DNA from: Methanobacteriota archaeon
Lineage (GTDB): Archaea > Thermoplasmatota > Poseidoniia > Poseidoniales > Thalassarchaeaceae
Assembly: GCA_018654845.1 (NCBI GenBank)
Contig: JABIKU010000002.1
Location: forward strand, 81,602-145,601
Direction of reading: 5' to 3'
DNA: 64,000 nt
Made by a program: the position numbers and the translations under genes
Notes under the pieces: model-generated
Told to the model about the DNA's origin: nothing
Databases searched by the model: none
The model's input: the letters and a program-made list of their open reading frames with translations, nothing else
Part shown: in pieces, positions 4,122 to 60,205 of the stretch
Layout of the letters: the number at the start of each line of letters is the position of its first letter
Numbering within the stretch: the first letter of the stretch is position 1

Positions 4122-4195
4122 AATTCTAAGACAATTTGAGATTTTCAGTAGCCGACTCATTGAAAGAGGATGCCCCTGTCGCGGGGGCGTATTCC

Positions 4196-6163
4196 ATGGT
4201 TAGTGACGCATCTGGATGGTACGCCCGGCTTGACCGCGAGTGTTCCGATAGGATTGAACAGTTAGAGACTTGGATTTCATCATGGGAAGAAGCAACCCGA
4301 CACGGCATTCCAATCGCAGCGACTTTGCCTAATTTTTGGCCAACTCTTCCAGCGGGATTACTTTCTGATCCGGGTGCAGTTCTCGACCATCTACTTGCGC
4401 GATATGAAGCAGAAAGTGATGGTCGTTCCCCGCGGGGCGCTTATGCAACTCCCGCTAAATTTGCTGAATCTATCCTCGCTGATGAATTGAAAAATTCTCG
4501 TGCAAATACAAAGAAAGCACCTCTACCTACCCTTACACTCTCTGCACTTCCTCCAGGCTTCCATGCCTATGCACAACAATTTAACCAAAATGTTTCAGAT
4601 GAGTTAGACGAAGATTGCGATGATAACTGTGATGGCTTACAAACTCGAACTGGAATTCCTATTCCTTTCGCCGACCCATCCGTAGGCGCTGGAGTTTTTC
4701 CAGCTCGCTTATTCAGAATTCATACAGAGCGGAGTGATAAATTCACAGATGAGGAAAGAAAGCAAGATACGCTTGACTTATTGAATGGATTGCAATTACT
4801 CGACGGTTCAGAAGTTGCAGTAAAATGTGCAAGACATCGGCTTCTTATCGCCCTCTGCCGATGTGGCCTAGTAGATCTCGATGGTGATGGTGATGAAAGT
4901 AAAATTGGTCGAAAAGATGCGGAAATTATTCTAAAAAACGCAGTACAAACTGGCGATGCACTACGAGGAGAGTGGCCGTGGACTGAAAAACCGGGCTTGC
5001 TAGTTTGTCGGCCACCTTGGTTACGAATCAAAGACCGGTTCAGAGGCCACCCCGATGGAAGTAATTTACGAAAAGAATTGTCACGACAACTTAGAAACAC
5101 TGCTGAAAAAGATGGGACTCGGCGCTTTTCAACACTTCGCGGCAATGTAAATCTCTACAGATTATTCCTTGAAAGAGGTATGCAATTGGTTCGAGATGAA
5201 GGTCGTGTGAGAATGATAGTTCCCGATTCCTTACTACGTGAAAAAAGCTCTATTCCACTCAGAAAGCTAATGATTGAAAGTAATCAATGGACCACTTCGT
5301 GGTCATTCCCTGAAAATCAAAGAGTATTTCCTGGTGTAACTCAAGGTGTTTTGGTTCTCAGTATTACTACCGGCGGATCTACTCAGACGATGAAAAGCTT
5401 CGGGCCCCTTGAAGCTACTGAAATTTCAACTCAATCTGGGCTCAAAACAAAGGCGCCCTTTATGGAATTGACACGCCCCTCATGGACTGTATGGACCCGT
5501 GGTACATGGGCTGTTCCTCGAATGCCAAGAGATCCCTATGAACGCCGACGAGTCATTCGCGCAATCGAAGATTTGGCGAATAAACCAAGATTGTCCGAAG
5601 ATAGTAATTGGCTTAATCCATCGGGCAAGCCAATTCGTGTTCGCGTCGGTGAAATCGATCAGACAAATTGGTCTGACGACATCAGCGAATGGGCTCTCGG
5701 CGCCCGTGGTGTGCCATTCATTCGTGGAACACATTTCCGAACAAAAGGAAGTGAAATCAGCATCAATCATCCAGCGTACAATTCAAAAATTAACTCCGAA
5801 TCTCCAGAACGTGCTCACGCCCGTTGGACCGGCCCGATTAAACCGCGAGGTCAACCGAGGCTCGCATGCCAAGCGATTGTTAATGCTCAACTTGAGCGAA
5901 GACTGAGGTGGGCCGTTGTTCCGCAAGATTGTGTCCTCGGTAATTCCGTTAACTTCCTTGAATTACCGGTCGAAGTATTAGACAAACTCGCTGAAAAACA
6001 CGGTTCTGTTGGCAAAGGATTGCTTTGGTTAGCTGCACACCTAAATTCAGAAATGCTCGATCTTTGGTCAAGAGCATGGGCTGCGAACAACAACGTGAAT
6101 AATTACGAAATCGAAAGTTTGCCGTTTCCCCAGCCTCGAGAAATTCGTTCGATTTCAACTTAA
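4196..6163 (+). CDS. gamma-class N6-adenine DNA methyltransferase-like protein with atypical motif IV (RPPW)
   Basis: GAYATPAKFAESIL (motif X-like), FADPSVGAGVF (motif I), LLVCRPPWLRI (motif IV position), NLYRLFLERGMQLVRDEGRVRMIVPDSLL, FPENQRVFPGV and a C-terminal NNYEIESLPFP. The order matches Eco57I/Alw26I-type enzymes. Start taken at ATG 4196; the track uses TTG at 4136. Confidence 0.6.
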   Translation: MVSDASGWYARLDRECSDRIEQLETWISSWEEATRHGIPIAATLPNFWPTLPAGLLSDPGAVLDHLLARYEAESDGRSPRGAYATPAKFAESILADELKNSRANTKKAPLPTLTLSALPPGFHAYAQQFNQNVSDELDEDCDDNCDGLQTRTGIPIPFADPSVGAGVFPARLFRIHTERSDKFTDEERKQDTLDLLNGLQLLDGSEVAVKCARHRLLIALCRCGLVDLDGDGDESKIGRKDAEIILKNAVQTGDALRGEWPWTEKPGLLVCRPPWLRIKDRFRGHPDGSNLRKELSRQLRNTAEKDGTRRFSTLRGNVNLYRLFLERGMQLVRDEGRVRMIVPDSLLREKSSIPLRKLMIESNQWTTSWSFPENQRVFPGVTQGVLVLSITTGGSTQTMKSFGPLEATEISTQSGLKTKAPFMELTRPSWTVWTRGTWAVPRMPRDPYERRRVIRAIEDLANKPRLSEDSNWLNPSGKPIRVRVGEIDQTNWSDDISEWALGARGVPFIRGTHFRTKGSEISINHPAYNSKINSESPERAHARWTGPIKPRGQPRLACQAIVNAQLERRLRWAVVPQDCVLGNSVNFLELPVEVLDKLAEKHGSVGKGLLWLAAHLNSEMLDLWSRAWAANNNVNNYEIESLPFPQPREIRSIST

Positions 6164-6928: not shown

Positions 6929-7312
6929 ATGGATTCCCCAGCGAGCCGTGCTCAACGTGTTTTAATCGGCATTGCCCTCCCTCTCTATCTCCTAACTGCA
7001 TTAGCTATCGTAGAAGGACGCGTCATCATTTTTGGTTGTGATTTAGTAGTTTGTCCGAATGCAGACAATGGTGCATTATTTATCCCTACCTTGGCCTTTC
7101 TAACTACAATTGCATATCTTTACATGCATTTCACTCGCAATAAAGAACTGGAATTCGCTCGTCTCGATAAATGGATCAGCCGCGAATCAGAAGAAGATAT
7201 GCGCATACGACTCAGAGCGGAGCAAGCAGAGGCGAGTGGAGAAAGTCTAGGAACTGGCTGGGCGACTATGGAACAAAAACACCTCGAAACACGTCTTGAA
7301 GAAGAGGAATGA
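6929..7312 (+). CDS. hypothetical membrane protein with charged C-terminal tail
   Basis: Two hydrophobic helices (VLIGIALPLYLLTALAIV, LFIPTLAFLTTIAYLYMHF) followed by a charged E/R-rich tail. Confidence 0.45.
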   Translation: MDSPASRAQRVLIGIALPLYLLTALAIVEGRVIIFGCDLVVCPNADNGALFIPTLAFLTTIAYLYMHFTRNKELEFARLDKWISRESEEDMRIRLRAEQAEASGESLGTGWATMEQKHLETRLEEEE

Positions 7313-7350
7313 AGACAGAAAACTTGACTCTCTGATGTCGATTCGTATGG

Positions 7351-7746
7351 TTGGATATTAGTATGAGTGAAGTTCCAGATGGATTGATTTACACAAAAGA
7401 CCATGAGTGGATTCGAGTTATTGATGATGAAATTATTATTGGAATTACTGATTATGCACAACATGCATTGACCGATGTTGTATGGGTTGAATTGCCCGAA
7501 ATAGGTGTTGATGTAGAAATGATGGAATCCTTTGCAAGCGTTGAATCGGTCAAGTCAGTCAGCGAAATTTATGCACCAGTTTCAGGTCAAGTTATAACTG
7601 CAAATGAAGGTTTAGAAGATGCTCCTGAAACGATTAACACCGATCCTTATGGAGATGGATGGATTTGTCGAATGTCAATTACAAATGTTGAAGAATTATC
7701 TACTCATTTAGATGCAGCTGGATATACGGCTCTCATCGGTGAATAA
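7351..7746 (+). CDS. gcvH: glycine cleavage system H protein
   Basis: YTKDHEWIRV, GITDYAQHALTDVVWVELPE, lipoyl-lysine context VESVKSVSEIYAPVSG, and DPYGDGW. Confidence 0.93.
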   Translation: MDISMSEVPDGLIYTKDHEWIRVIDDEIIIGITDYAQHALTDVVWVELPEIGVDVEMMESFASVESVKSVSEIYAPVSGQVITANEGLEDAPETINTDPYGDGWICRMSITNVEELSTHLDAAGYTALIGE

Positions 7747-7748
7747 GA

Positions 7749-8288
7749 ATGAGTAATATGCGAGAAATTTCGATTTATATCGATGGTTCTTGCGAGGAAA
7801 ATCGCAATGTTACAGCGAATACACTAGCCGGTTGGGGGTTTTGTGTAGTCATCGGCGATACTGGCCTTGGAAAGGGCCAGGGTGAAATTACAACAGAACG
7901 TAATGGGGTCGTCGTCACCGATTCTTCCATCGAGGGATTTATCGGCGCGGAAGTTGGGTCGAATAATACAGCAGAATTGTCAGCAATGTTCCATGGATTA
8001 CGTTGGTTATTGGCCCAAGGCGGAGAAGAATCGGCTGTCATTCGTGGAGATTCAACCTATGCTCTGAACGTCGGTTCGAGAATCTGGAAGGCTAAAGCTA
8101 ACCGTCAATTGGCGTTGACAGTACAGAAATTATGGGATGAAGTTTCACAGTTGCGACAACTTTCACAGGAGCATGTTCGGGCTCATCGCGGTCATCGTTG
8201 GAATGAGCGAGCAGATCATCTCGCATTTCGGGCCATGAGTGGAGAGGATGCTCTTCCACTACAGTTTTGGAAGCCAGGTATGAGATGA
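7749..8288 (+). CDS. rnhA: ribonuclease HI (type 1 RNase H)
   Basis: DEDD catalytic pattern: IYIDGSC, NNTAELSAM, IRGDSTY, and HRGHRWNERADHLA. Confidence 0.85.
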   Translation: MSNMREISIYIDGSCEENRNVTANTLAGWGFCVVIGDTGLGKGQGEITTERNGVVVTDSSIEGFIGAEVGSNNTAELSAMFHGLRWLLAQGGEESAVIRGDSTYALNVGSRIWKAKANRQLALTVQKLWDEVSQLRQLSQEHVRAHRGHRWNERADHLAFRAMSGEDALPLQFWKPGMR

Positions 8289-35857: not shown

Positions 35858-35951
35858 AGATTATCGCGGACTGAGGCAATACATGAATAAGTAGGTTAGT
35901 ACATCTCTTTATCTGCTATTTCTGGATGCCAGGGCGTTTTCTAATATTCAT

Positions 35952-35978
35952 AGCGGAAAATAATTTCCGGATTCCGAA
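35952..35978. promoter_or_regulatory. TTCCGGA/TTCCGAA motif pair with BRE/TATA-like CGGAAAATAATTT upstream of the amidinotransferase-fold gene
   Basis: AGCGGAAAATAATTTCCGGATTCCGAATAG lies 32-58 nt upstream of ATG 36010. It resembles the elements at 6164-6200 and 15692-15699. Confidence 0.3.
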
Positions 35979-36009
35979 TAGTTATGAATGGGAGGGCGGA
36001 CGGCGATTC

Positions 36010-36807
36010 ATGCCTGGCACCTTCGATCGGAGTCGTCGGTCCGCAGTCACCCGACGCGTATCAAAAAATTTCGATCATGCGCTCTCTAAATATTTCGGTG
36101 TCAACACTCCCGATGCGAAAGCAGGACAAGGGGCTCATGATGCCTATGTGGCTGCACTTCGTGCGCACGGAACTGAGGTCACAGTCCTTCCAGGACTTGA
36201 TAATCACCCAGATTGTTGTTTCGTCGAAGATGTTGCCGTGATGGTTTGCGACAAGGCAATTATTCCCAAATTAGGGCATGAGTCTCGTGAAGGAGAACAG
36301 ATGGCAATAATCGAATACTTGAGAGGGGGTTCTGAAATTATCCACATGAATTCCAATTGCACTTTAGATGGTGGTGATGTTATTTTCTTAGATGATCGTT
36401 ATCTAATTGGCATCTCAACACGAACTAATCGAGCTGGAGCTGAATTCCTAGCGAAATACGTCAAAGAGGCTGGCTTTGAAGTTGAATTAATTGAAATCCC
36501 AGACTCAACCTTGCATCTAACAACCGTCTGTTCTTCTCCACGCCCAGGGACTCTTGTCGCCGCAGAAGGGCATCTTAGTATCAATCAAATAGGACACCTT
36601 GCTGAAGAAATAATTTGGGTGCCTAATTCTGAGACTTATGCTGCGAATACAATTGGATATCCTGAGGATAAGGTCATTATAGCGGCAGGATATTCAGCAA
36701 CTCGACAATTATTACTCGACGCTGGATTCAACGTCACAACAGTTGACATGGATGCGATTCGTGAAGCAGATGGGTCCCTAACTTGCTTATCACAGTTCAA
36801 TGCGTGA
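36010..36807 (+). CDS. dimethylarginine dimethylaminohydrolase / amidinotransferase-fold enzyme
   Basis: CCFVEDVAVM, LDGGDVIFL, IGISTRTNRAGAEFL, STLHLTT, and the C-terminal catalytic cysteine context ADGSLTCLSQF. Confidence 0.8.
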   Translation: MPGTFDRSRRSAVTRRVSKNFDHALSKYFGVNTPDAKAGQGAHDAYVAALRAHGTEVTVLPGLDNHPDCCFVEDVAVMVCDKAIIPKLGHESREGEQMAIIEYLRGGSEIIHMNSNCTLDGGDVIFLDDRYLIGISTRTNRAGAEFLAKYVKEAGFEVELIEIPDSTLHLTTVCSSPRPGTLVAAEGHLSINQIGHLAEEIIWVPNSETYAANTIGYPEDKVIIAAGYSATRQLLLDAGFNVTTVDMDAIREADGSLTCLSQFNA

Positions 36808-51853: not shown

Positions 51854-52741
51854 TTATTCGCCATCCCAGATTCCTTCTGCAATCATGAATTCCATGACTC
51901 GTTCCGACACGTTCGCCCTGTTTCCCCCACGAACGCCTGTTGCAGATATTGCGAATACCTCTGGAGGTATGTCGTCCGCCTCACGGAGTTCGTAACCGAC
52001 CTTGCGGCCGTAGGAAATTGCTTCGATATCGGGCATAACCCATGCCTCAACGTCTTCGTCAGCATACCTATGCTCAATCATTCTCTTTCGAACATCTGTT
52101 GAGAAGGGATCTGAATCCGATACTGGAGTATTTCTGATGCCAACAACAACCCTCTTTCCTTGATCTAACTCTCTTTGGATGAGCCATTCGTGACCCACGT
52201 GTAGAGGTTGCCAGCGACCTGGAAGAAGTACGGATTTTTGCTTCTCAAAGAGATGTGCTAGTTGCCCGACCATGTCGTCGACGGAGTTGCCTTCATTACC
52301 ACTAGAATCTAGTGTGATGTGTGCACACTTTGGTTCATCAAAGGGGTCGCTAATACCTGTAAAATTAGTTATTTCACCAATGCGGGCCTTTGCGTAGAGG
52401 CCTTTCACATCTCTTTCCTCACATACTTCAAGAGATGTAGATACGTGCACCATAACTGCATTATCTGGGAGTATTTCTAGAATCTTCTCTCGTACGTCTT
52501 CGTAAGGAGTGATGAATGAACAAAGAACATCGGTGTGTTTTGAAATCATTTTTGCCATCTTAGCAATGCCGAGAAGATGTCTTTCTCGTCCTTCGCGGCT
52601 AAAATCGTGGTTAGCAAAGAAGTCTCTAATTGTGTCTCCATCAAGCACTTCACAACCATACCTGTCTGCTGCTGCCATAGCGATAGTTGTCTTTCCTGCT
52701 CCTGAAAGACCTGTGAACCAAACTACTCTGTTGCTCATCAT
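51854..52741 (-). CDS. cysC: adenylylsulfate (APS) kinase fused to a C-terminal NMNAT/cytidylyltransferase-like nucleotidyltransferase domain
   Basis: N-terminal VVWFTGLSGAGKTTIA, LDGDTIR, FITPY, RDVKGLYAKARIGEITNFTGISDPFDEP (CysC). C-terminal ~130 aa with LLPGRWQPLHVGHEWLI (GxxQPxHxGH) and AISATGVRGG (ISxTxxR-like). Confidence 0.88.
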   Translation of the reverse strand: MMSNRVVWFTGLSGAGKTTIAMAAADRYGCEVLDGDTIRDFFANHDFSREGRERHLLGIAKMAKMISKHTDVLCSFITPYEDVREKILEILPDNAVMVHVSTSLEVCEERDVKGLYAKARIGEITNFTGISDPFDEPKCAHITLDSSGNEGNSVDDMVGQLAHLFEKQKSVLLPGRWQPLHVGHEWLIQRELDQGKRVVVGIRNTPVSDSDPFSTDVRKRMIEHRYADEDVEAWVMPDIEAISYGRKVGYELREADDIPPEVFAISATGVRGGNRANVSERVMEFMIAEGIWDGE

Positions 52742-52850: not shown

Positions 52851-53744
52851 ATGGAGGCAGGGCAGCCAGTGGTTCCTGAGGTCGGCGCTTTTCTCCTAGG
52901 TTCACCCAAAGCTGGCACCACTTGGTTAGCAGATGCCCTTTCTCAACACCCAGATATTTGTGTCTCTGATCCTAAGGAGCCAAATATTGTAGCTACTCAC
53001 AAAGGAACTTTTTCCAGAGATGCTTCGCCTCCAAATTGGGAAGCATATGCTGACTGTTTCGTAGAAAAAGGGGTGCGAATAGATTGTTCGGTTCACGCAT
53101 TAGCCTGCCCGATAGCTCCTCAAAGAGTCAGAGAAAATTGGCCAGGTGCAAAATTGATTATTTCTCTTCGAGAGCCCGTCAGTCGCACGATTTCTCATTG
53201 GAATATGGCCATCAGCACAGAAGAAGATAAGGAAAATAATTTGGATTGGAGTGATTTTGAGGTGGCTTGGTCGGACTCACGTTTACAGTGTGACACACTT
53301 TATGGGTCGGCTATCTCAAGATGGCTGGAATTTTTTGATTTAGATTCTATTTTGATTATTGAAGCAAAGAGGATGAGGGAGGAGCCGGCGATCGTTCTGA
53401 AAAAAATTTGTGAGCACATTGGTGTCGATGATTATTCCTTTAGATTAGATCTGGTGCGCAACACAAATACTGCTTCAGATAGGCGGCCCCTTACTTTATT
53501 TGGCCGCCTATTTCGTAGCCTTGCAAATTTATTGCCTGATTTAGTAAAGAGGCCGGTTGTAAAGCGATTACAAAAAAAGGGTGTGAATATATACAAAATG
53601 CCAGTATTATCTGGTAAAGCACTTGAAAAACGGAAAATCACTGATGAGCAACGATCTATTCTGGCTGAAACAGTGAATGAAGACCTATTGCTTTTAGAAG
53701 AATTAACCGGTTTTTCAAATCCAGATTGGTGGATTCAGTCCTGA
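52851..53744 (+). CDS. PAPS-dependent sulfotransferase
   Basis: 5'-PSB loop FLLGSPKAGTTWLADAL and 3'-PB motif ISLREPVSRTISHW. 297 aa, no signal peptide. Confidence 0.88.
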   Translation: MEAGQPVVPEVGAFLLGSPKAGTTWLADALSQHPDICVSDPKEPNIVATHKGTFSRDASPPNWEAYADCFVEKGVRIDCSVHALACPIAPQRVRENWPGAKLIISLREPVSRTISHWNMAISTEEDKENNLDWSDFEVAWSDSRLQCDTLYGSAISRWLEFFDLDSILIIEAKRMREEPAIVLKKICEHIGVDDYSFRLDLVRNTNTASDRRPLTLFGRLFRSLANLLPDLVKRPVVKRLQKKGVNIYKMPVLSGKALEKRKITDEQRSILAETVNEDLLLLEELTGFSNPDWWIQS

Positions 53745-54547
53745 TGGGCTATCCATTGCTCGTTCCAACGATCATCTGCTGCTACCATGAAAAATGGGTT
53801 TAATATATTGTCAACTACATCGTAATCAAGAGTTTTTCCCGTAGGACCCAACACACAACCTCCGGCACCGACAACGACAGCGTGTGCTGCCGCTATATCC
53901 CAACAAGATGTTGGTCCGAATCTAGGATAGAGATCTGCATTACCTTCTGCGACAATACATGCCTTCAGAGAAGAGCCCATTCTAATTAGGTCATAATTCC
54001 CAAGCGTTTTGGCAAAAGATTCGTCTTTCTCACCCCTATGCGATCCGCTTGCGACCAGCCTTGTTGGTTTTGGGGGATTTGAGGGATTTACCATCATTAA
54101 ACCAGAACCATCTGAACCCCTTCTTTCTGATGGGTGGGATATGCCCCCTAACCAAGTGGTATTCGGCACCGGAGCATGAACAACGCCGAACAGTGGTGAC
54201 CAGCGGGCGCCCTTTTTCACCATCAATGCGATGTTAACAGTAAACATTCCATTCCGCTTGATGAATTCCTTTGTCCCATCAAGAGGGTCTACCAACCAAC
54301 AAGTGTTACTCGAGATTGGGTCTCCGACATTACCTTCCTCCGAAACAATTGGTATGTTATTCAACGACTGTAATCCCTCGACAATGAGGTTGTGCGCTGC
54401 AATATCAGCTTCTGTCAAAGGAGAATTGTCACTTTTGTTAGATATTTCAAATCCTTCTGCGCGGTTGTAGATTTCTAAAATCGCAAGCCCTGCATCTTCT
54501 GCAAGCTTGACAATGAATTCTGAATCCAAAAGGGCCACTCCGATCAA
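53735..54547 (-). CDS. cysQ: 3'(2'),5'-bisphosphate nucleotidase (CysQ / inositol monophosphatase family)
   Basis: VSEEG, WLVDPLDGTKEF, GSSLKACIVAEGNADLYPRFGPTSCWDIAAAHAVV. TTG start overlaps the stop of the upstream membrane gene (TTGA). Confidence 0.88.
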   Translation of the reverse strand: MIGVALLDSEFIVKLAEDAGLAILEIYNRAEGFEISNKSDNSPLTEADIAAHNLIVEGLQSLNNIPIVSEEGNVGDPISSNTCWLVDPLDGTKEFIKRNGMFTVNIALMVKKGARWSPLFGVVHAPVPNTTWLGGISHPSERRGSDGSGLMMVNPSNPPKPTRLVASGSHRGEKDESFAKTLGNYDLIRMGSSLKACIVAEGNADLYPRFGPTSCWDIAAAHAVVVGAGGCVLGPTGKTLDYDVVDNILNPFFMVAADDRWNEQWIAHQD

Positions 54548-55193: not shown

Positions 55194-58100
55194 TTATTCC
55201 TGAATAATCTCTTGTTGCATTGGATGCTCTACGATCTCTTGCTCAACCGGTTTCCTTAGTTTCAAGTATCCAATTGTACCAATAATTGTGAACACAACGA
55301 TTATCGCAACGATGAGTCCAGTCATTCCAATTGTAGAAGATGAGGTGCCTTCAGTTGATGGTTGAGAATTATTTTCCTCTTGTTGTTGTTGTGGTGAAAT
55401 GATTGTAAACGGTGTTGATGATTGATTCAATACTGAAACATCTCCAATGCGATTGGTAATGGAAAGAACCCAAGGTTGACTCCAAGTTCCTTCTTCAAAT
55501 CCTGTATTAATTAGGAGAGAGAGTTCAAGTTGGCCTTGTGAGGAAAGTTCTCCTACCACAGTAGTTTCTTGAATGAATGATGTTGCCCCCAACACAGTTA
55601 ATGAAACATTCATTGGAAAGGTTCCATCAGTATTGCTGATAATACAACTTACTAGGGTTGCAGTTGTATTCATTTGCAGTGATTGTGTCACTTCAGTACA
55701 CTGAACATCCACGTTATATTCAATTGCAGAAGAAGCATCTATCGTATTGGAATATTGTTCACATTCGGCACTATCAGTTGCGTCACAAACCAAAACCTGT
55801 ACTTCAATTGAGTTATCCAAAAATGAAGATAAAGAAACTTCAATCGCCCAATCTCCATCTTGAATAGAGTGATTATCAAGGAGGGTTGTACCTGCACTAG
55901 TAATCGTTACCAAACCTTCTCTAAAGCGGAATTGGTGTTGTCCGGAAACTGTTAGATTCAAATCATTTGAATCGAATTGCCATGAGCTAATATCTCCTGA
56001 AACAAGAGGGGCCAGTGGTATTATTTCAAACATTGAAGAAGTAATAACCGTTTGACTTGGGTTTCCATATCCATCGAAAAGGAATGCTGTAAGTTCATGA
56101 AATCCAATTTCCCAATCTGTTGTTTGCAATAGAACTGAAGACATTCCTGTATTGATTGGGGAAATGGTTTGATTAGAAACTTGGGTGCCATTGAAAGAAG
56201 CAATAACATAGCCATTGATCATCTCGTTTTGGTCACTTGACCATTCCAATTGTACAATCATATCATCGCCTATCAATACGATTTTATCATGATTAATTGC
56301 TGTTATTACAGGTCCAGTCAGATCCACTAAACTAAAGGAATAATCAACACCACTTTGGTATCCATCAACATCTTCAGCCATTTGTCCAGTTGTCTCTGAA
56401 ATATCAACCTCTAATAGCCATGTCTTCAAATCATCACGGCTTGGAGTCCAATATGCTGTATAGGCATTTTTGTTTTCATCCCAACCAAGCCAAAGAGCCT
56501 CTGAATTTCCTTGTGAAGGCGTTAAGATGACCGATGCCGATAAATCGCTTCTATTATGCTGAGATGTAACCGAAAAAATGAACCCTTCATCGTGCAATTC
56601 CCATGTGCTGGAATCTTCAAATACAGATATTGCATTATGTGTATTATTTGCTGCAGCCATCGTTATTGAAGTGACCGATGGAAAGGCAGGGCCGATTTCA
56701 AACGCATAGGCTTGCTCTACAAATAGCACATTGCCATGAGCATCAACCAGTTCTAATGCAATATAATTTTGAGTTGTAGCTGTAGGGTTAAATCCTGTTG
56801 GATTGAAAGAAGCACCATACCTTCCTATGGTGGAAAAATAGGATAACGAATTTGTTATTGCTGGTTTTGTACTATCACCTTGATGAATCCAAGCTGAACC
56901 TGTCAGTGTTGTTTCACCAATAACATCTTCAACAGTAATTGCAAATGAATCTCCTACACGAATAGATTTCCCAATATTTTCTCCAATTCTATGATATATT
57001 GAATAGAGTTGGGGGGCGATATCATCAATCCACTGTACAGACAGATCTTTGAGAGTCACCTCATAGTTTTGCAAGTTAAATGGAATTGTATCTCCCGAGA
57101 CTTGCAATGTGTATTGAGATAAACAAGATGATATGGCATTATACCAATCATTACAAGCTGCAAATGCATATTGTGTTAGGTTTGATTTCAAATCAACATC
57201 ATGTGTCCAAGACCAAGACATTTGAGGATGTTTAACATCCAATTGTACTGCCATAGTTGTTGAAATATTGAAAATAAGTTGATTCATTTCAACTCCATCT
57301 GTTCCAATCGTTCCACTACTCGGCCATGCATTGATTAATTGTTGAGTAGTGAACTCAATGTCAACTCCTCCTAATTCTGAATTCATAGCCCCAGTATAAA
57401 CTGTTGAACTACCCAACATCACCTCAATTGTATCTGTGGCAGAATTAATTGGCCAATCTATCCATATATTGAGAGATGATGTTGGAATTGCAAATGTTGG
57501 AATTGAAATGTTAACTGTGTGTGAATTAGAATTACTCACAATCGTAGCATTATCTGAATAACCAATTGATTGTGAAAGTGGGCCCAAAAGTGTGCTTCCA
57601 CCTGGCATAGTCATCTCAAGATTATTGAGAATATGTGCATCATCCCAGAATAACGTATAGTCGCTCAATTCTGGAGATTGTGTACCTGTACGATTGAATT
57701 GATAAGAAAATTGTACAGCAGTTAACCGCAGTAATATTTGATGCGATAAATTGCCTATATTCCAATCACTCCAATCAGTAGAAGTATCTGTTGTTAAGCC
57801 AGAAATTGTGTATCTATATTTGAATATTAAACTTGAATTTACTGGAATTGTTGAAGTGTGATTTATCCATCCATCAATAATTTCTCCACCATTTGGCGAC
57901 CATGCATCGGTAATGAAAGAACCGTCATTCTCATTGACTTCATTTGAAACTGTATAGCCTGCCCAAGTAGAGGAACTGTTGACACCAGTTGATCCTGAAG
58001 AACCCGGCACCCCAACTGCACCGGTTCCATATGGTTGGCCTCCACTACCACCACTACCAGCTGAAACAGAAATAGTTCCTTGATTGTAATAATTGGAGAC

Positions 58101-58928
58101 TTGAGTCATTATAGTAATACGGCCGCCATCTCCGCCATGGAAAAAACCGATGCAGGCACCTGAACAGAAACTAGGAGCACCATGCCCACCATCTCCGCCA
58201 ACCGCTTCAATAATGCCACCCGAGTCGACATTTACTGTATTTGCTTTAATGAAAATTGAACCTCCACTCCCACCTCCAGCACCTGAACCACCTGGTCCTG
58301 AGCCTCCTGAAATCGGGTGGCCATTGGCACCATTCTCTCCATTGGATTGAATTGTCCCATTAACATCAATTTGTTCTGCAAATATTCGTATATATCCGCC
58401 GCCGTTTCCGCCGCCTGCAGTTGGATGATTTGAACTACTGACTGAACCGCCTTGTGAGCCAGGTTCGGTAGAATTTCCATAGGATGACCCGCCATTACTG
58501 GGGCCACCACCACCACTGCCGCCACTGCCGCCATGGCCTGCGCCACCACCGCCATCACTGTAGCCATTACTTGATGCAACAATTGTACCTCCAGCACCAG
58601 TACCACCACTACTTATTGCGTTTGCAGAAATGGTTGTTCCAGCCGCAACAACCAGTATTCTAACGGTAATCGTTAGATTTCCAGTAGCAGTTATTGAGCC
58701 ACAAGTTTGGGCCCCACAACTTAAATTAAGAGTATCATAACTATGAGAACCTGACCATTGAACGGCATTTTGAATGGTAGTAGAGTTATTTCCTGACCCT
58801 GGCGGTCCTGCATTTGCATTGATTAGTTCAACGCCCGTTGTAGTTACAAATGTATTATTGAGTGTTCCGTTCGTTTGAGCATTTGCCATATTATAATACA
58901 TTGATTGAGTTGAAGAATGTGGTAACAC
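55194..58928 (-). CDS. giant (1244 aa) glycine-rich, probably beta-helical, C-terminally anchored surface protein
   Basis: Gly-rich block with alternating hydrophobic strands (GGGGAGHGGSGGSGGGGPSNGG, IRIFAEQIDVNGTIQSNGENG, IFIKANTVNVDSGGIIEAVGGDGG). Many N-x-S/T sequons. Q/S/T-rich stalk and TM GLIVAIIVVFTIIGTIGYL. The track start is a GTG with no signal peptide. Confidence 0.75.
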   Translation of the reverse strand: MLPHSSTQSMYYNMANAQTNGTLNNTFVTTTGVELINANAGPPGSGNNSTTIQNAVQWSGSHSYDTLNLSCGAQTCGSITATGNLTITVRILVVAAGTTISANAISSGGTGAGGTIVASSNGYSDGGGGAGHGGSGGSGGGGPSNGGSSYGNSTEPGSQGGSVSSSNHPTAGGGNGGGYIRIFAEQIDVNGTIQSNGENGANGHPISGGSGPGGSGAGGGSGGSIFIKANTVNVDSGGIIEAVGGDGGHGAPSFCSGACIGFFHGGDGGRITIMTQVSNYYNQGTISVSAGSGGSGGQPYGTGAVGVPGSSGSTGVNSSSTWAGYTVSNEVNENDGSFITDAWSPNGGEIIDGWINHTSTIPVNSSLIFKYRYTISGLTTDTSTDWSDWNIGNLSHQILLRLTAVQFSYQFNRTGTQSPELSDYTLFWDDAHILNNLEMTMPGGSTLLGPLSQSIGYSDNATIVSNSNSHTVNISIPTFAIPTSSLNIWIDWPINSATDTIEVMLGSSTVYTGAMNSELGGVDIEFTTQQLINAWPSSGTIGTDGVEMNQLIFNISTTMAVQLDVKHPQMSWSWTHDVDLKSNLTQYAFAACNDWYNAISSCLSQYTLQVSGDTIPFNLQNYEVTLKDLSVQWIDDIAPQLYSIYHRIGENIGKSIRVGDSFAITVEDVIGETTLTGSAWIHQGDSTKPAITNSLSYFSTIGRYGASFNPTGFNPTATTQNYIALELVDAHGNVLFVEQAYAFEIGPAFPSVTSITMAAANNTHNAISVFEDSSTWELHDEGFIFSVTSQHNRSDLSASVILTPSQGNSEALWLGWDENKNAYTAYWTPSRDDLKTWLLEVDISETTGQMAEDVDGYQSGVDYSFSLVDLTGPVITAINHDKIVLIGDDMIVQLEWSSDQNEMINGYVIASFNGTQVSNQTISPINTGMSSVLLQTTDWEIGFHELTAFLFDGYGNPSQTVITSSMFEIIPLAPLVSGDISSWQFDSNDLNLTVSGQHQFRFREGLVTITSAGTTLLDNHSIQDGDWAIEVSLSSFLDNSIEVQVLVCDATDSAECEQYSNTIDASSAIEYNVDVQCTEVTQSLQMNTTATLVSCIISNTDGTFPMNVSLTVLGATSFIQETTVVGELSSQGQLELSLLINTGFEEGTWSQPWVLSITNRIGDVSVLNQSSTPFTIISPQQQQEENNSQPSTEGTSSSTIGMTGLIVAIIVVFTIIGTIGYLKLRKPVEQEIVEHPMQQEIIQE

Positions 58929-59272: not shown

Positions 59273-60205
59273 TCATCGGGATTTGTCAATAATGAGTTTC
59301 GAATCGATATATTTCGAAAGATTTTTTTGAAATTCAAGTTCTTCAGAAAAAACCGTTTCGAGTTCTTTTCTAACGTCTTCAGATAGTTCTGGTCTTCGAT
59401 ATGGTTTGGGTTTGAAAGCCGGAGAACGAATTGGATCTAGAATGGCCTTGCGTAATTTTTGAGTAGGAATTAGTATTTTTATCAACGATGCTAGAATGGT
59501 TGGCGGCTTTCTAACAAATTGTGCCCACCTTGCAGAATTTATCATTCCACTTTCATTTTGCTTTGATAAATTTATATCGTCTGAAAATTTTTCAACCCCC
59601 AACCATTCTAGTATTTCGTTCAGAGTTTGGATCGGGGCTGCTTTGAGGGAATTTATTGGTATGATTCTAACTCTGTCGCCTAGTTTTTCTACCCATTCAA
59701 GAACGGGCTGTTTTAATTGGGGAAACCGCATAAAACTGTATGTTTGTGGGTTATTTTCATCGATTACAAATCCTGCCTCGCGGCAATAATCTATCATTTC
59801 ATCTTGTGTGAGTGTGTAATCAATCAATCTTTTTCGATGTTCTTGATGCATGCTTAACATGATATCTATTGGATCTCGGAGTGTAATTATCACCTTCGCT
59901 TCTGGCATTTGATCTTTAATTGAAGATAGTGCCCTTGTTGAATAGAGGTGGAATGCGGATTTGTCCATTACGTAATTTTCCTTGTTATAGTTAGAAAGAT
60001 CTGCATATGGAGCTAGGATTGCGGTTCCTTTCGGATGTATTGGAGAGGTTGGAAATTCTGCTGCGCCAGCGATTAAAAATTGGCTCTCATTTGGCCACGG
60101 ATGGAATATCTGTTCGTGCTCCCTGAGCCAGTGCATCAACGAGGTCGTGCCGGTTTTTGGGCCACCGACAAGAAGTAAATTTGGTGCCGGTTCAAATCGA
60201 TGCAT
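59273..60205 (-). CDS. PAPS-dependent sulfotransferase (carbohydrate sulfotransferase-like)
   Basis: 5'-PSB LLLVGGPKTGTTSLMHWL and 3'-PB IITLRDPIDIMLSMHQEH. 310 aa, no signal peptide. Confidence 0.88.
   Translation of the reverse strand: MHRFEPAPNLLLVGGPKTGTTSLMHWLREHEQIFHPWPNESQFLIAGAAEFPTSPIHPKGTAILAPYADLSNYNKENYVMDKSAFHLYSTRALSSIKDQMPEAKVIITLRDPIDIMLSMHQEHRKRLIDYTLTQDEMIDYCREAGFVIDENNPQTYSFMRFPQLKQPVLEWVEKLGDRVRIIPINSLKAAPIQTLNEILEWLGVEKFSDDINLSKQNESGMINSARWAQFVRKPPTILASLIKILIPTQKLRKAILDPIRSPAFKPKPYRRPELSEDVRKELETVFSEELEFQKNLSKYIDSKLIIDKSR

Follow-up and report, generated by a model that had tools for sequence, protein, structure and literature searches.

How an archaeon that encodes an adenosine 5'-phosphosulfate (APS) kinase obtains the APS that this enzyme consumes is the question raised by a 64,000-nucleotide stretch of contig JABIKU010000002.1 (assembly GCA_018654845.1, positions 81,602 to 145,601), hereafter the window, from a Marine Group IIb (MGIIb) archaeon of the Thalassarchaeaceae. 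One of its open reading frames (ORFs), 295 residues long, joins an N-terminal APS kinase (CysC) to a small C-terminal nucleotidyltransferase domain (hereafter NT). Sulfate activation is thought to rest on two types of enzyme, ATP sulfurylase (Sat) and CysDN. An earlier note on this DNA had suggested that NT supplies the APS, and this idea appears to be the best available explanation, strengthened by the comparative genomics presented here. On balance, we lean towards reading the fusion protein as a compact two-domain synthase of 3'-phosphoadenosine 5'-phosphosulfate (PAPS), in which NT would make APS; NT itself is probably a small enzyme, not described before, that carries out the first step in activating sulfate. 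The protein is by no means rare. Relatives that are 83-89% identical are very common in marine metagenomes, and the named close ones belong to Candidatus Thalassarchaeum (e.g., Candidatus Thalassarchaeum betae) and other Thalassarchaeaceae. Members of the family are deposited under the names 'adenylyl-sulfate kinase', 'cytidyltransferase-like protein' and 'kinase', with fragments called 'nicotinamide mononucleotide adenylyltransferase'.

The N-terminal half is a conventional and genuine APS kinase. It matched PF01583 over residues 5-144 (E 6.3e-40; 137 bits, where the cut-off is 21.1), and its NCBIfam matches were strong and to adenylyl-sulfate kinase, with TIGR00455 scoring 134.3 bits, slightly under the equivalog-domain cut-off of 138.7. 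The kinase motifs are present, namely the P-loop GLSGAGKT (residues 11-18), DGD (residues 34-36, within LDGDTIR), SFITP(Y) and KGLYAKAR...NFTGI, as is the motif region KGLYAKARIGEITNFTGI. The AlphaFold2 model of the full 295-residue fusion has a mean pLDDT (predicted local distance difference test score) of 92.9. Foldseek searches placed the kinase half on human, plant, fungal, bacterial and archaeal APS kinases with a root-mean-square deviation (rmsd) of 1.5-2.0 Å and 33-40% identity, and the full model matched through this half only. The sole oddity lies in the lid motif, which in an alignment to E. coli CysC reads GRERHLLG in MGIIb versus DRxENxRR.

The C-terminal half has a different origin. 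It matched PF01467 over residues 172-238 (E 4.5e-6, 27.3 bits against a gathering score of 21), as did 37 of 37 sampled relatives, in agreement with the architecture of an APS kinase followed by a small HxGH domain that the earlier note had described. The span which that note gave for the second domain corresponds exactly to residues 166-295, and the strings it quoted were found, LLPGRWQPLHVGHEWLI at residues 171-187 (HVGH at 181-184) and AISATGVRGG at residues 264-273. It was also right that the motifs are of the type seen in nicotinamide mononucleotide adenylyltransferases (NMNATs) and cytidylyltransferases and not of the Sat type, with GRWQPLHVGH and YGRKVGY and without GRDHAG. When a profile of the NT family built from 37 diverse relatives was compared with MJ0541, the NMNAT of M. 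jannaschii, HHalign aligned the two at full length (124 columns, probability 99.2%, E 3e-19); because the motifs are also kept in about 300 relatives, this homology is not due to chance. In a profile search of the PDB, archaeal NMNATs and NadM came first (E 4e-16 to 1e-10; 1f9a 3.7e-16), followed by phosphopantetheine adenylyltransferase (PPAT) and TagD, and Sat was not among the 60 best matches listed. NT thus shares GRxQPxHxGH, ISxTxxR and full-length homology with archaeal and NadM-type NMNATs, yet it stays below the NMNAT equivalog cut-offs (TIGR01527, 22.5 vs 181.2 bits; PRK01153, 32.5 vs 127). The NCBIfam matches of this half were weak, to NMNAT and PPAT models, and covered only the N-terminal 60 or so residues of the domain.

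A relationship to Sat, by comparison, was marginal. The Sat family PF01747 had no match in the window protein and weak sub-threshold matches in 11 of the 37 relatives; the sole one inspected, in P0196, covers motif 3 (ISATGVR in the window protein) and the next helix. Against a Sat profile of six catalytic-domain sequences (yeast, verified against 1G8F, and plasmid-borne sat genes), HHalign gave a probability of 60% and E 8e-5 over approximately 60 columns, from motif 1 (GRWQPLHVGH) to strand beta3 only, and against the single yeast sequence a probability of 12% with only the ISGT motif aligned. The Foldseek search of the isolated domain that the earlier note had proposed yielded weak matches that did not discriminate its function: the NT-only model (pLDDT 91.6) had no close structural neighbour, with a best E of only 8.5e-4 and a query-normalised TM score of about 0.7 to archaeal NMNAT. 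Given that NMNATs lead the profile matches and that the Sat match is marginal, NT is, judged by its sequence, a divergent and shortened offshoot of the NadM/archaeal NMNAT type and not a cryptic Sat; archaeal/NadM-type NMNAT is almost certainly its evolutionary source.

What NT has kept, lost and gained relative to NMNAT points to its substrates. The ATP-binding residues are retained, namely the Arg and His of GRxQPxHxGH and the Ser, Thr and Arg of ISxTxxR. Two segments of MJ0541 are deleted, one of 17 residues, FNSIWVSYVESLTPPFDI, which we take to be the nicotinamide-binding helix of NMNAT with its ring-contacting Asn and Trp, and a further one of 8 residues. Moreover, NMNAT GSAQ has become IR(N/D)T in the NT family (IRNT in the window), where R203 replaces Gly, and YSGN has become YGR, where R246 replaces Asn, so that the NMN-binding elements (the helix after beta3, GSAQ and SGN) are all missing from NT. 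In the comparison with NMNAT, the two new Arg fall at the ends of strands beta2 and beta4. Conservation was counted in 304 family members from viruses and from cells of many phyla. In motif 1, R176 is kept in 301/301, H181 in 299/302 and H184 in 302/302; R203 is kept in 299/304; in motif 2 (GRKVGY), G245 is kept in 303/304, R246 in 302/304 and G249 in 304/304; and in motif 3, S266 is kept in 299/304, T268 in 293 (with Ser in another 10) and R271 in 303/303. In the model, R203 closes strand beta2 (residues 197-203), and the GR motif is part of the loop that follows strand beta3; together they would form the acceptor-substrate region of this fold, with R203 as the proposed binder of the attacking oxyanion. 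An intact ATP site, the loss of the helix for a bulky ligand and the gain of two Arg therefore suggest a small anionic acceptor. In 25 of 34 comparisons among MGIIb orthologues, NT showed a nonsynonymous divergence (dN) no greater than that of the kinase domain, and the ratio of nonsynonymous to synonymous divergence was approximately 0.02-0.05 in the five comparisons with unsaturated synonymous sites; NT is therefore not vestigial in MGIIb.

NT and the kinase are seldom found apart. We searched one genome per species with a query of 7 NT-only sequences, and the viral contigs of IMG/VR likewise with NT only, and analysed the best 80 of at least 547 cellular loci and the best 80 of 266 viral contigs; the family thus occurs in the genomes of at least 547 species and in 266 viral contigs. 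The best 80 cellular loci come from 35 MGIIb species, Marine Group III (MGIII), Woesearchaeota, Nanoarchaeota, Iainarchaeota, bacteria of the Candidate Phyla Radiation (CPR), Omnitrophota, Planctomycetota including Scalindua, Saprospiraceae/Lewinellaceae, Acidobacteriota and a gammaproteobacterium, and also from cultured Haloarcula and Haladaptatus. In 69 of these 80, NT and APS kinase form a single protein, CysC-NT in 48 and NT-CysC in 21, with both orders confirmed by Pfam. CysC is the adjacent ORF, 0-130 bp away, in another 7, and is missing in 4, two of which lie at a contig edge. At the viral loci the two are fused in 12 of 80, within 300 bp of each other in 51 and within about 2.2 kb in 9, while 8 have no CysC. 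Altogether, in 148 of 160 loci APS kinase is either fused to NT or encoded no more than about 2 kb away, and NT is a separate gene beside cysC in approximately 67. All these linkage statistics come from the NT-only scans. The A1 profile used in a representative search kept approximately 62 columns of the CysC tail, and its counts (8841 and 949) are for that reason inflated by kinase-only matches and biased to fused forms; only the top 150 architectures from it were used. In a word-indexed search with NT alone, nearly all matches were fragments of the same MGIIb protein.

Two rarer fusions were seen beside these, NT with a DHH/DHHA1 phosphoesterase in the 432-residue P0278 (a DHH-type motif and a weak, sub-threshold DHHA1 match) and a viral APS kinase that ends in a HAD-type hydrolase domain (L149, an IMG/VR contig, 6980-7945; also a weak Pfam match). 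Among DHH proteins are pAp phosphatases and pyrophosphatases, and both fusions would, as far as such weak matches go, point to the same pathway as NT-CysC. Two further NT proteins, P0300 and P0307, begin with approximately 240 residues rich in CxC/CxxC. By eye these extensions resemble an HNH-type (homing or phage) endonuclease, without a Pfam match, and probably reflect an insertion or a merged gene call irrelevant to NT.

The neighbourhoods of NT recurrently encode a fusion of a family 2 glycosyltransferase (GT2) with a sulfotransferase (12 loci), two kinds of Sulfotransfer_3 proteins (11 and 5 loci), methyltransferases, B12-radical SAM enzymes and amidinotransferase-like proteins, and those of viral NT genes encode epimerases, UDP-glucose dehydrogenases, GT2 enzymes and sulfotransferases. 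The earlier note had advised a survey of how often the fusion co-occurs with sulfotransferases. Sulfotransferase-like ORFs were found in at least 15 of 35 MGIIb loci, at least 18 of 45 other cellular loci and at least 10 of 80 viral loci, which are conservative lower bounds taken from the first search round, since the second round drifted into GT2 domains. In cultured haloarchaea, ten megaplasmid records carry a CysC-NT fusion, and in all four that were examined it forms a cassette of a 407-residue sulfotransferase, CysC-NT (annotated as cysC) and a YqcI/YcgG protein, in surroundings that are unrelated between records. No sulfurylase was found in the annotated stretches of approximately 18 kb around the four cassettes, which look like a mobile module for small-molecule sulfation.

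Known sulfurylases were hardly found beside NT. Within the window, a Pfam scan of 51 of the 54 ORFs of at least 150 residues (the other three are nested in or overlap scanned genes on the opposite strand) found no Sat, CysD, CysN or CysH, and a six-frame tblastn search with E. coli CysD, CysN and CysH and yeast Sat gave no match at E ≤ 1e-3, as the earlier note had stated for sat and cysDN. Across the 2.15 Mb of DNA flanking NT genes (8-10 kb on each side), Sat had no matches (blastp E ≤ 0.1, tblastn E ≤ 1e-4) and CysD was encountered once, in an Acidobacteriota metagenome-assembled genome (locus L065, DATGWN010000087.1, 5117-8259). Two CysN matches were not counted: that of L074 is aIF2-gamma according to Pfam, and that of L037 stands by itself 9 kb away, a GTPase-type match that has no annotation and no CysD beside it.

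An intact adenylyltransferase that almost never occurs without APS kinase is most simply accounted for if it makes the kinase's substrate. The reading is further suggested by the two fusion orders, as in Sat, by the clusters of sulfotransferase and phosphatase for 3'-phosphoadenosine 5'-phosphate (PAP) around NT that lack a known sulfurylase, and by the exchange of the nicotinamide pocket for two Arg. Attack of an oxyanion on the alpha-phosphate of ATP with release of pyrophosphate is the chemistry of the whole superfamily, of which Sat is a member. We propose that NT would bind ATP in an NMNAT-like manner through R176, H181/H184 and S266/T268/R271, while R203 and R246 would form a small basic site in place of the NMN pocket and hold sulfate. 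Sulfate would then attack the ATP alpha-phosphate to give APS and pyrophosphate, and the fused kinase, perhaps with channelling between the domains, would at once convert APS to PAPS and so pull a very unfavourable equilibrium. That equilibrium would explain why NT and the kinase are almost never apart. In the window, the two sulfotransferases encoded nearby would use the PAPS, with surface glycans or glycoproteins as the probable targets, and the neighbouring CysQ would destroy the by-product PAP. Whether NT amounts to a third class of ATP sulfurylase with an evolutionary origin of its own, approximately 120 residues long, carved from an NMNAT and working only alongside APS kinase, is in our judgement evenly balanced; such a class would be spread over MGIIb, MGIII, DPANN archaea, haloarchaeal megaplasmids, CPR bacteria, Omnitrophota, Planctomycetota, Bacteroidota, Acidobacteriota and many aquatic viruses.

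The fusion gene belongs to a sulfation island that also encodes CysQ and two sulfotransferases (Table 1). The first sulfotransferase gene is divergent from the fusion gene across a spacer of 109 bp. In 28 of the 35 MGIIb loci, an ORF for CysQ, which removes PAP, the by-product of sulfotransfer, lies no more than 3.5 kb from the fusion gene, and the membrane protein of 200 residues directly downstream of CysQ has homologues in 27 related MGIIb loci. Between the two sulfotransferases lies the 1244-residue ORF, with 12.5% Ser, 11.5% Gly, 10% Thr, 26 N-X-S/T sequons and a single C-terminal membrane anchor (residues ~1194-1225). No homologue of it was found in the 34 other MGIIb loci. It is probably a surface glycoprotein, hypervariable and S-layer-type in appearance, and may be a candidate carrier of sulfated glycans. 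The window also encodes prefoldin, FtsY, thermosome and geranylgeranylglyceryl phosphate synthase, all of which fit an archaeon, and a 675-residue ORF with an Eco57I-type restriction-modification methylase domain (4136-6163, forward strand). An amidinotransferase/arginine-deiminase-like gene (PF02274/PF19420) lies 15 kb from the fusion (35926-36807, forward strand). Genes of these families adjoin NT-CysC in 10 loci (e.g., L044, 4555-5442), mostly of Omnitrophota and Planctomycetota and also of Haloarcula; the one in the window is possibly there by coincidence.

Table 1. Features of the NT-APS kinase locus (window positions) and of related genes elsewhere (positions within the named loci)
Feature	Position	Strand	Evidence
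APS kinase + NT fusion, whole ORF, 295 aa	51854..52741	-	ORF list, Pfam, AlphaFold2 model
APS kinase (CysC) domain, aa 1-165	52247..52741	-	PF01583, TIGR00455, Foldseek, E. coli CysC alignment
NT domain, aa 166-295, minimal HxGH nucleotidyltransferase, putative ATP sulfurylase	51857..52246	-	PF01467, HHalign, AlphaFold2
Motif 1 GRWQPLHVGH, aa 175-184, ATP phosphate-binding Arg + HxGH	52190..52219	-	conservation; alignment to NMNAT GRFQPFHKGH
R203, family-specific Arg, C-terminal end of strand beta2	52133..52135	-	conservation, HHalign column mapping, model
Motif 2 GRKVGY, aa 245-250, family signature	51992..52009	-	conservation
Motif 3 ISATGVR, aa 265-271, ISxTxxR ATP beta/gamma-phosphate motif	51929..51949	-	conservation
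Sulfotransferase 1	52851..53744	+	PF00685 E 3e-11, PF13469 E 6e-10
CysQ, 3'(2'),5'-bisphosphate nucleotidase	53735..54547	-	TIGR01331 E 1.5e-66 (224.6 bits vs cut-off 228.8), PF00459
Conserved 200-aa protein, two predicted membrane helices	54544..55146	-	hydropathy; no Pfam family
1244-aa Ser/Gly/Thr/Asn-rich protein	55194..58928	-	composition, anchor; no Pfam match
Sulfotransferase 2	59273..60205	-	PF13469 E 1.8e-10, PF00685 E 2.8e-6
phrog_10255 kinase + NT	Sano gp35: L162 4584-5321; DLP_6: L163 3590-4321		
Haloarchaeal megaplasmid cassettes	L164 9181-12277; L171 7017-10127; L172 5989-9360; L173 7024-10126		

Several observations weigh against APS synthesis by NT. The nearest known enzymes are NMNATs rather than sulfurylases, and in the Foldseek search of NT a methanogen ATP sulfurylase appeared at rank 41, far under PPAT and NMNAT. 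An equivalence of GRxVGY with the Sat GRD loop remains a topological guess without support from sequence, the loops being unaligned in HHalign. Sulfotransferase-like ORFs were found in just 10 of the 80 viral loci, even if this is a lower bound, and the flanks searched extend 8-10 kb from each NT gene. Viruses and plasmids can draw on the APS of their hosts. At the Acidobacteriota locus L065, cysD-cysN is divergent to NT-CysC, the only such locus of 160. Finally, cysD (TIGR02039) and cysN (TIGR02034) are listed for all MGIIb populations of the North Sea (Orellana et al. 2019, supplement; PMC6864105), so the kinase could obtain APS from CysDN, with NT redundant or otherwise employed. This makes the earlier note's argument from the lack of sat and cysDN in the window a weak one here. 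The same source lists cysQ in most MGIIb populations and cysH in none, and its row 'cysNC (TIGR02034, TIGR00455)' may partly reflect the CysC-NT fusion.

The reported cysDN is equally relevant to two other explanations. NT might transfer adenylyl or cytidylyl groups to a different small acceptor, phosphorylated or anionic, that the same glycan or natural-product clusters use, with APS coming from CysDN or Sat elsewhere; the acceptor could be a polyol or sugar phosphate, as in the TagD/CDP-glycerol system, or the product a nucleotide-linked donor that a CysC-like kinase phosphorylates at the 3' position. The intact catalytic motifs of NT would suit such a role, as would its neighbours, which are often glycosyltransferases, epimerases, UDP-glucose dehydrogenases and methyltransferases. 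In TagD-type enzymes, basic residues that end strand beta2 bind the phosphate of glycerol-3-phosphate. This explanation leaves the linkage to APS kinase in both orders and the fusion to a DHHA1-type phosphoesterase unaccounted for, many viral loci have NT and CysC without detected glycan genes, and the kinase half is a conventional one, 40% identical to human APS kinase; we regard it as unlikely. Much the same low probability attaches to the view that NT is a non-catalytic module which binds ATP, APS or PAPS and regulates or stabilises the kinase. That would explain the redundancy with CysDN in MGIIb. It also has precedents: fungal ATP sulfurylase contains a dead kinase-like domain, a 'cysC' on a Desulfolutivibrio plasmid includes a Sat-like domain that has degenerated, and in EhAPSK of Entamoeba a sulfurylase-like domain has lost substrate binding and modulates the kinase (PMC13213808). 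The motifs of the latter two are degenerate, whereas the ATP-binding and catalytic residues of NT are near-invariant over phyla and viruses, and the separate NT genes would be unusual for a purely allosteric domain. Furthermore, the single lineage that loses R246 adjoins cysDN. In L065 this residue is His (YGHDVGY), a substitution otherwise seen only in P0204, which probably belongs to the same lineage since it shares the architecture and motif 1 (GRWQPFHYGH) too. That the one lineage without R246 is the one beside cysDN suggests that this residue matters in the absence of another sulfurylase nearby. Last, NT could be the cell's own NMNAT for NAD synthesis, fused to CysC by an accident of gene order. 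Its closest solved or curated relatives are indeed archaeal NMNAT and NadM, the window has no second NMNAT-like gene, and nadC lies within it (485-1423). The earlier note had held that tight grouping with bona fide NMNATs would speak against its idea, and this came out half one way and half the other: the nearest known relatives are bona fide NMNATs, yet NT does not group tightly with them, given its low TIGR01527 score, the loss of the 17-residue segment and a family of its own. NT also occurs, partnered with CysC, in viruses and in bacteria, which normally make NAD with NadD, and fusion in both orders argues against an accident. We consider an NMNAT role highly improbable.

If NT does make APS, the consequences reach well beyond this locus. 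Genome-based predictions of PAPS synthesis and sulfate assimilation rest on finding Sat or CysDN, and reconstructions of abundant marine archaea, of CPR and DPANN organisms with tiny genomes and of aquatic viruses that carry 'cysC' would then miss a step. Many apparently orphan 'cysC' genes of viruses and microbes would encode or adjoin a complete pathway from sulfate to PAPS, and the sulfation of surface glycans or metabolites would occur more widely, and in a more self-contained form, than is annotated now. A single-chain PAPS synthase of 295 residues would also be attractive for biocatalytic PAPS regeneration, and NT would offer a clean case of a new small-anion substrate gained by deletion of a binding helix and acquisition of two Arg. 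This large family is prominent ecologically and open to experiment, with a function that is so far inferred, and as it occurs in cultured haloarchaea and cultured phages, the proposal is directly testable.

Our full-text literature searches found no description of an NMNAT-like or otherwise non-canonical ATP sulfurylase. The main survey of viral sulfur genes reports cysC as abundant in aquatic viruses and never uses the words adenylyltransferase or sulfotransferase, and so describes no partner gene for it. Cultured phages of Xylella, Xanthomonas and Stenotrophomonas have a short kinase-NT fusion. The 'kinase' family phrog_10255 (gp35 of Xylella phage Sano and AAY80_227 of Stenotrophomonas phage DLP_6) has a C-terminal NT with all three motifs, as here, but a shorter kinase half (proteins of approximately 245 residues) and an NT identity of 30-39% to that of the window. 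These genes lie among phage genes of DNA metabolism, including a MazG-like pyrophosphatase, topoisomerase and cysteine dioxygenase, and may serve another function than the genes of the marine family do. Entamoeba EhAPSK (PMC13213808) and the 'cysC' on plasmid p1 of Desulfolutivibrio sulfodismutans likewise combine an APS kinase with an extra domain of nucleotidyltransferase fold, but there the extra domain is derived from Sat and has degenerate motifs, whereas NT is derived from NMNAT and its motifs are invariant. The Sat-like domain of the Desulfolutivibrio protein (L170, 1-666) reads QEATPLHRMH, VHEGHDD and SHADLT.

Archaeal and NadM-type NMNATs (MJ0541, 1F9A; M. thermautotrophicus, 1EJ2; NadM, 2QJO; TIGR01527) share GR(F/W)QPxHxGH, ISxTxxR and the Rossmann-like fold with NT, whose partners, in contrast, are APS kinase and sulfotransferases and not genes of NAD synthesis. 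CysDN has the same outcome as is proposed for NT, APS from ATP and sulfate, and is likewise fused or adjacent to CysC (CysNC and the cysDNC operon; L081). Unlike NT, which has no GTPase partner, it consists of an unrelated PP-loop ATP pyrophosphatase and a GTPase, and it adjoins NT-CysC in 1 of 160 loci. The closest parallel is with the PAPS synthases, APSK-Sat in metazoan PAPSS1/2 and Sat-APSK in bacteria and fungi (Aquifex aeolicus, 2GKS), which also combine an APS kinase with an adenylyltransferase of the HxxH/HxGH superfamily. Both domain orders exist among them, mirrored by CysC-NT and NT-CysC; their genomic role is the same, the supply of sulfotransferases with a PAP phosphatase nearby; and the kinase of PAPSS1 superposes on that of the window with an rmsd of 1.8 Å at 40% identity. 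They differ from the fusion in the second domain, where approximately 390 residues with a PUA-like domain, QxRNPxHxxH and GRDHAG stand against some 125 residues with none of these, so that in the window protein the kinase is present and Sat is replaced by the NMNAT-derived NT. By its sequence, the fusion may thus be described as a PAPS-synthase-like protein with a different, putative sulfurylase module.

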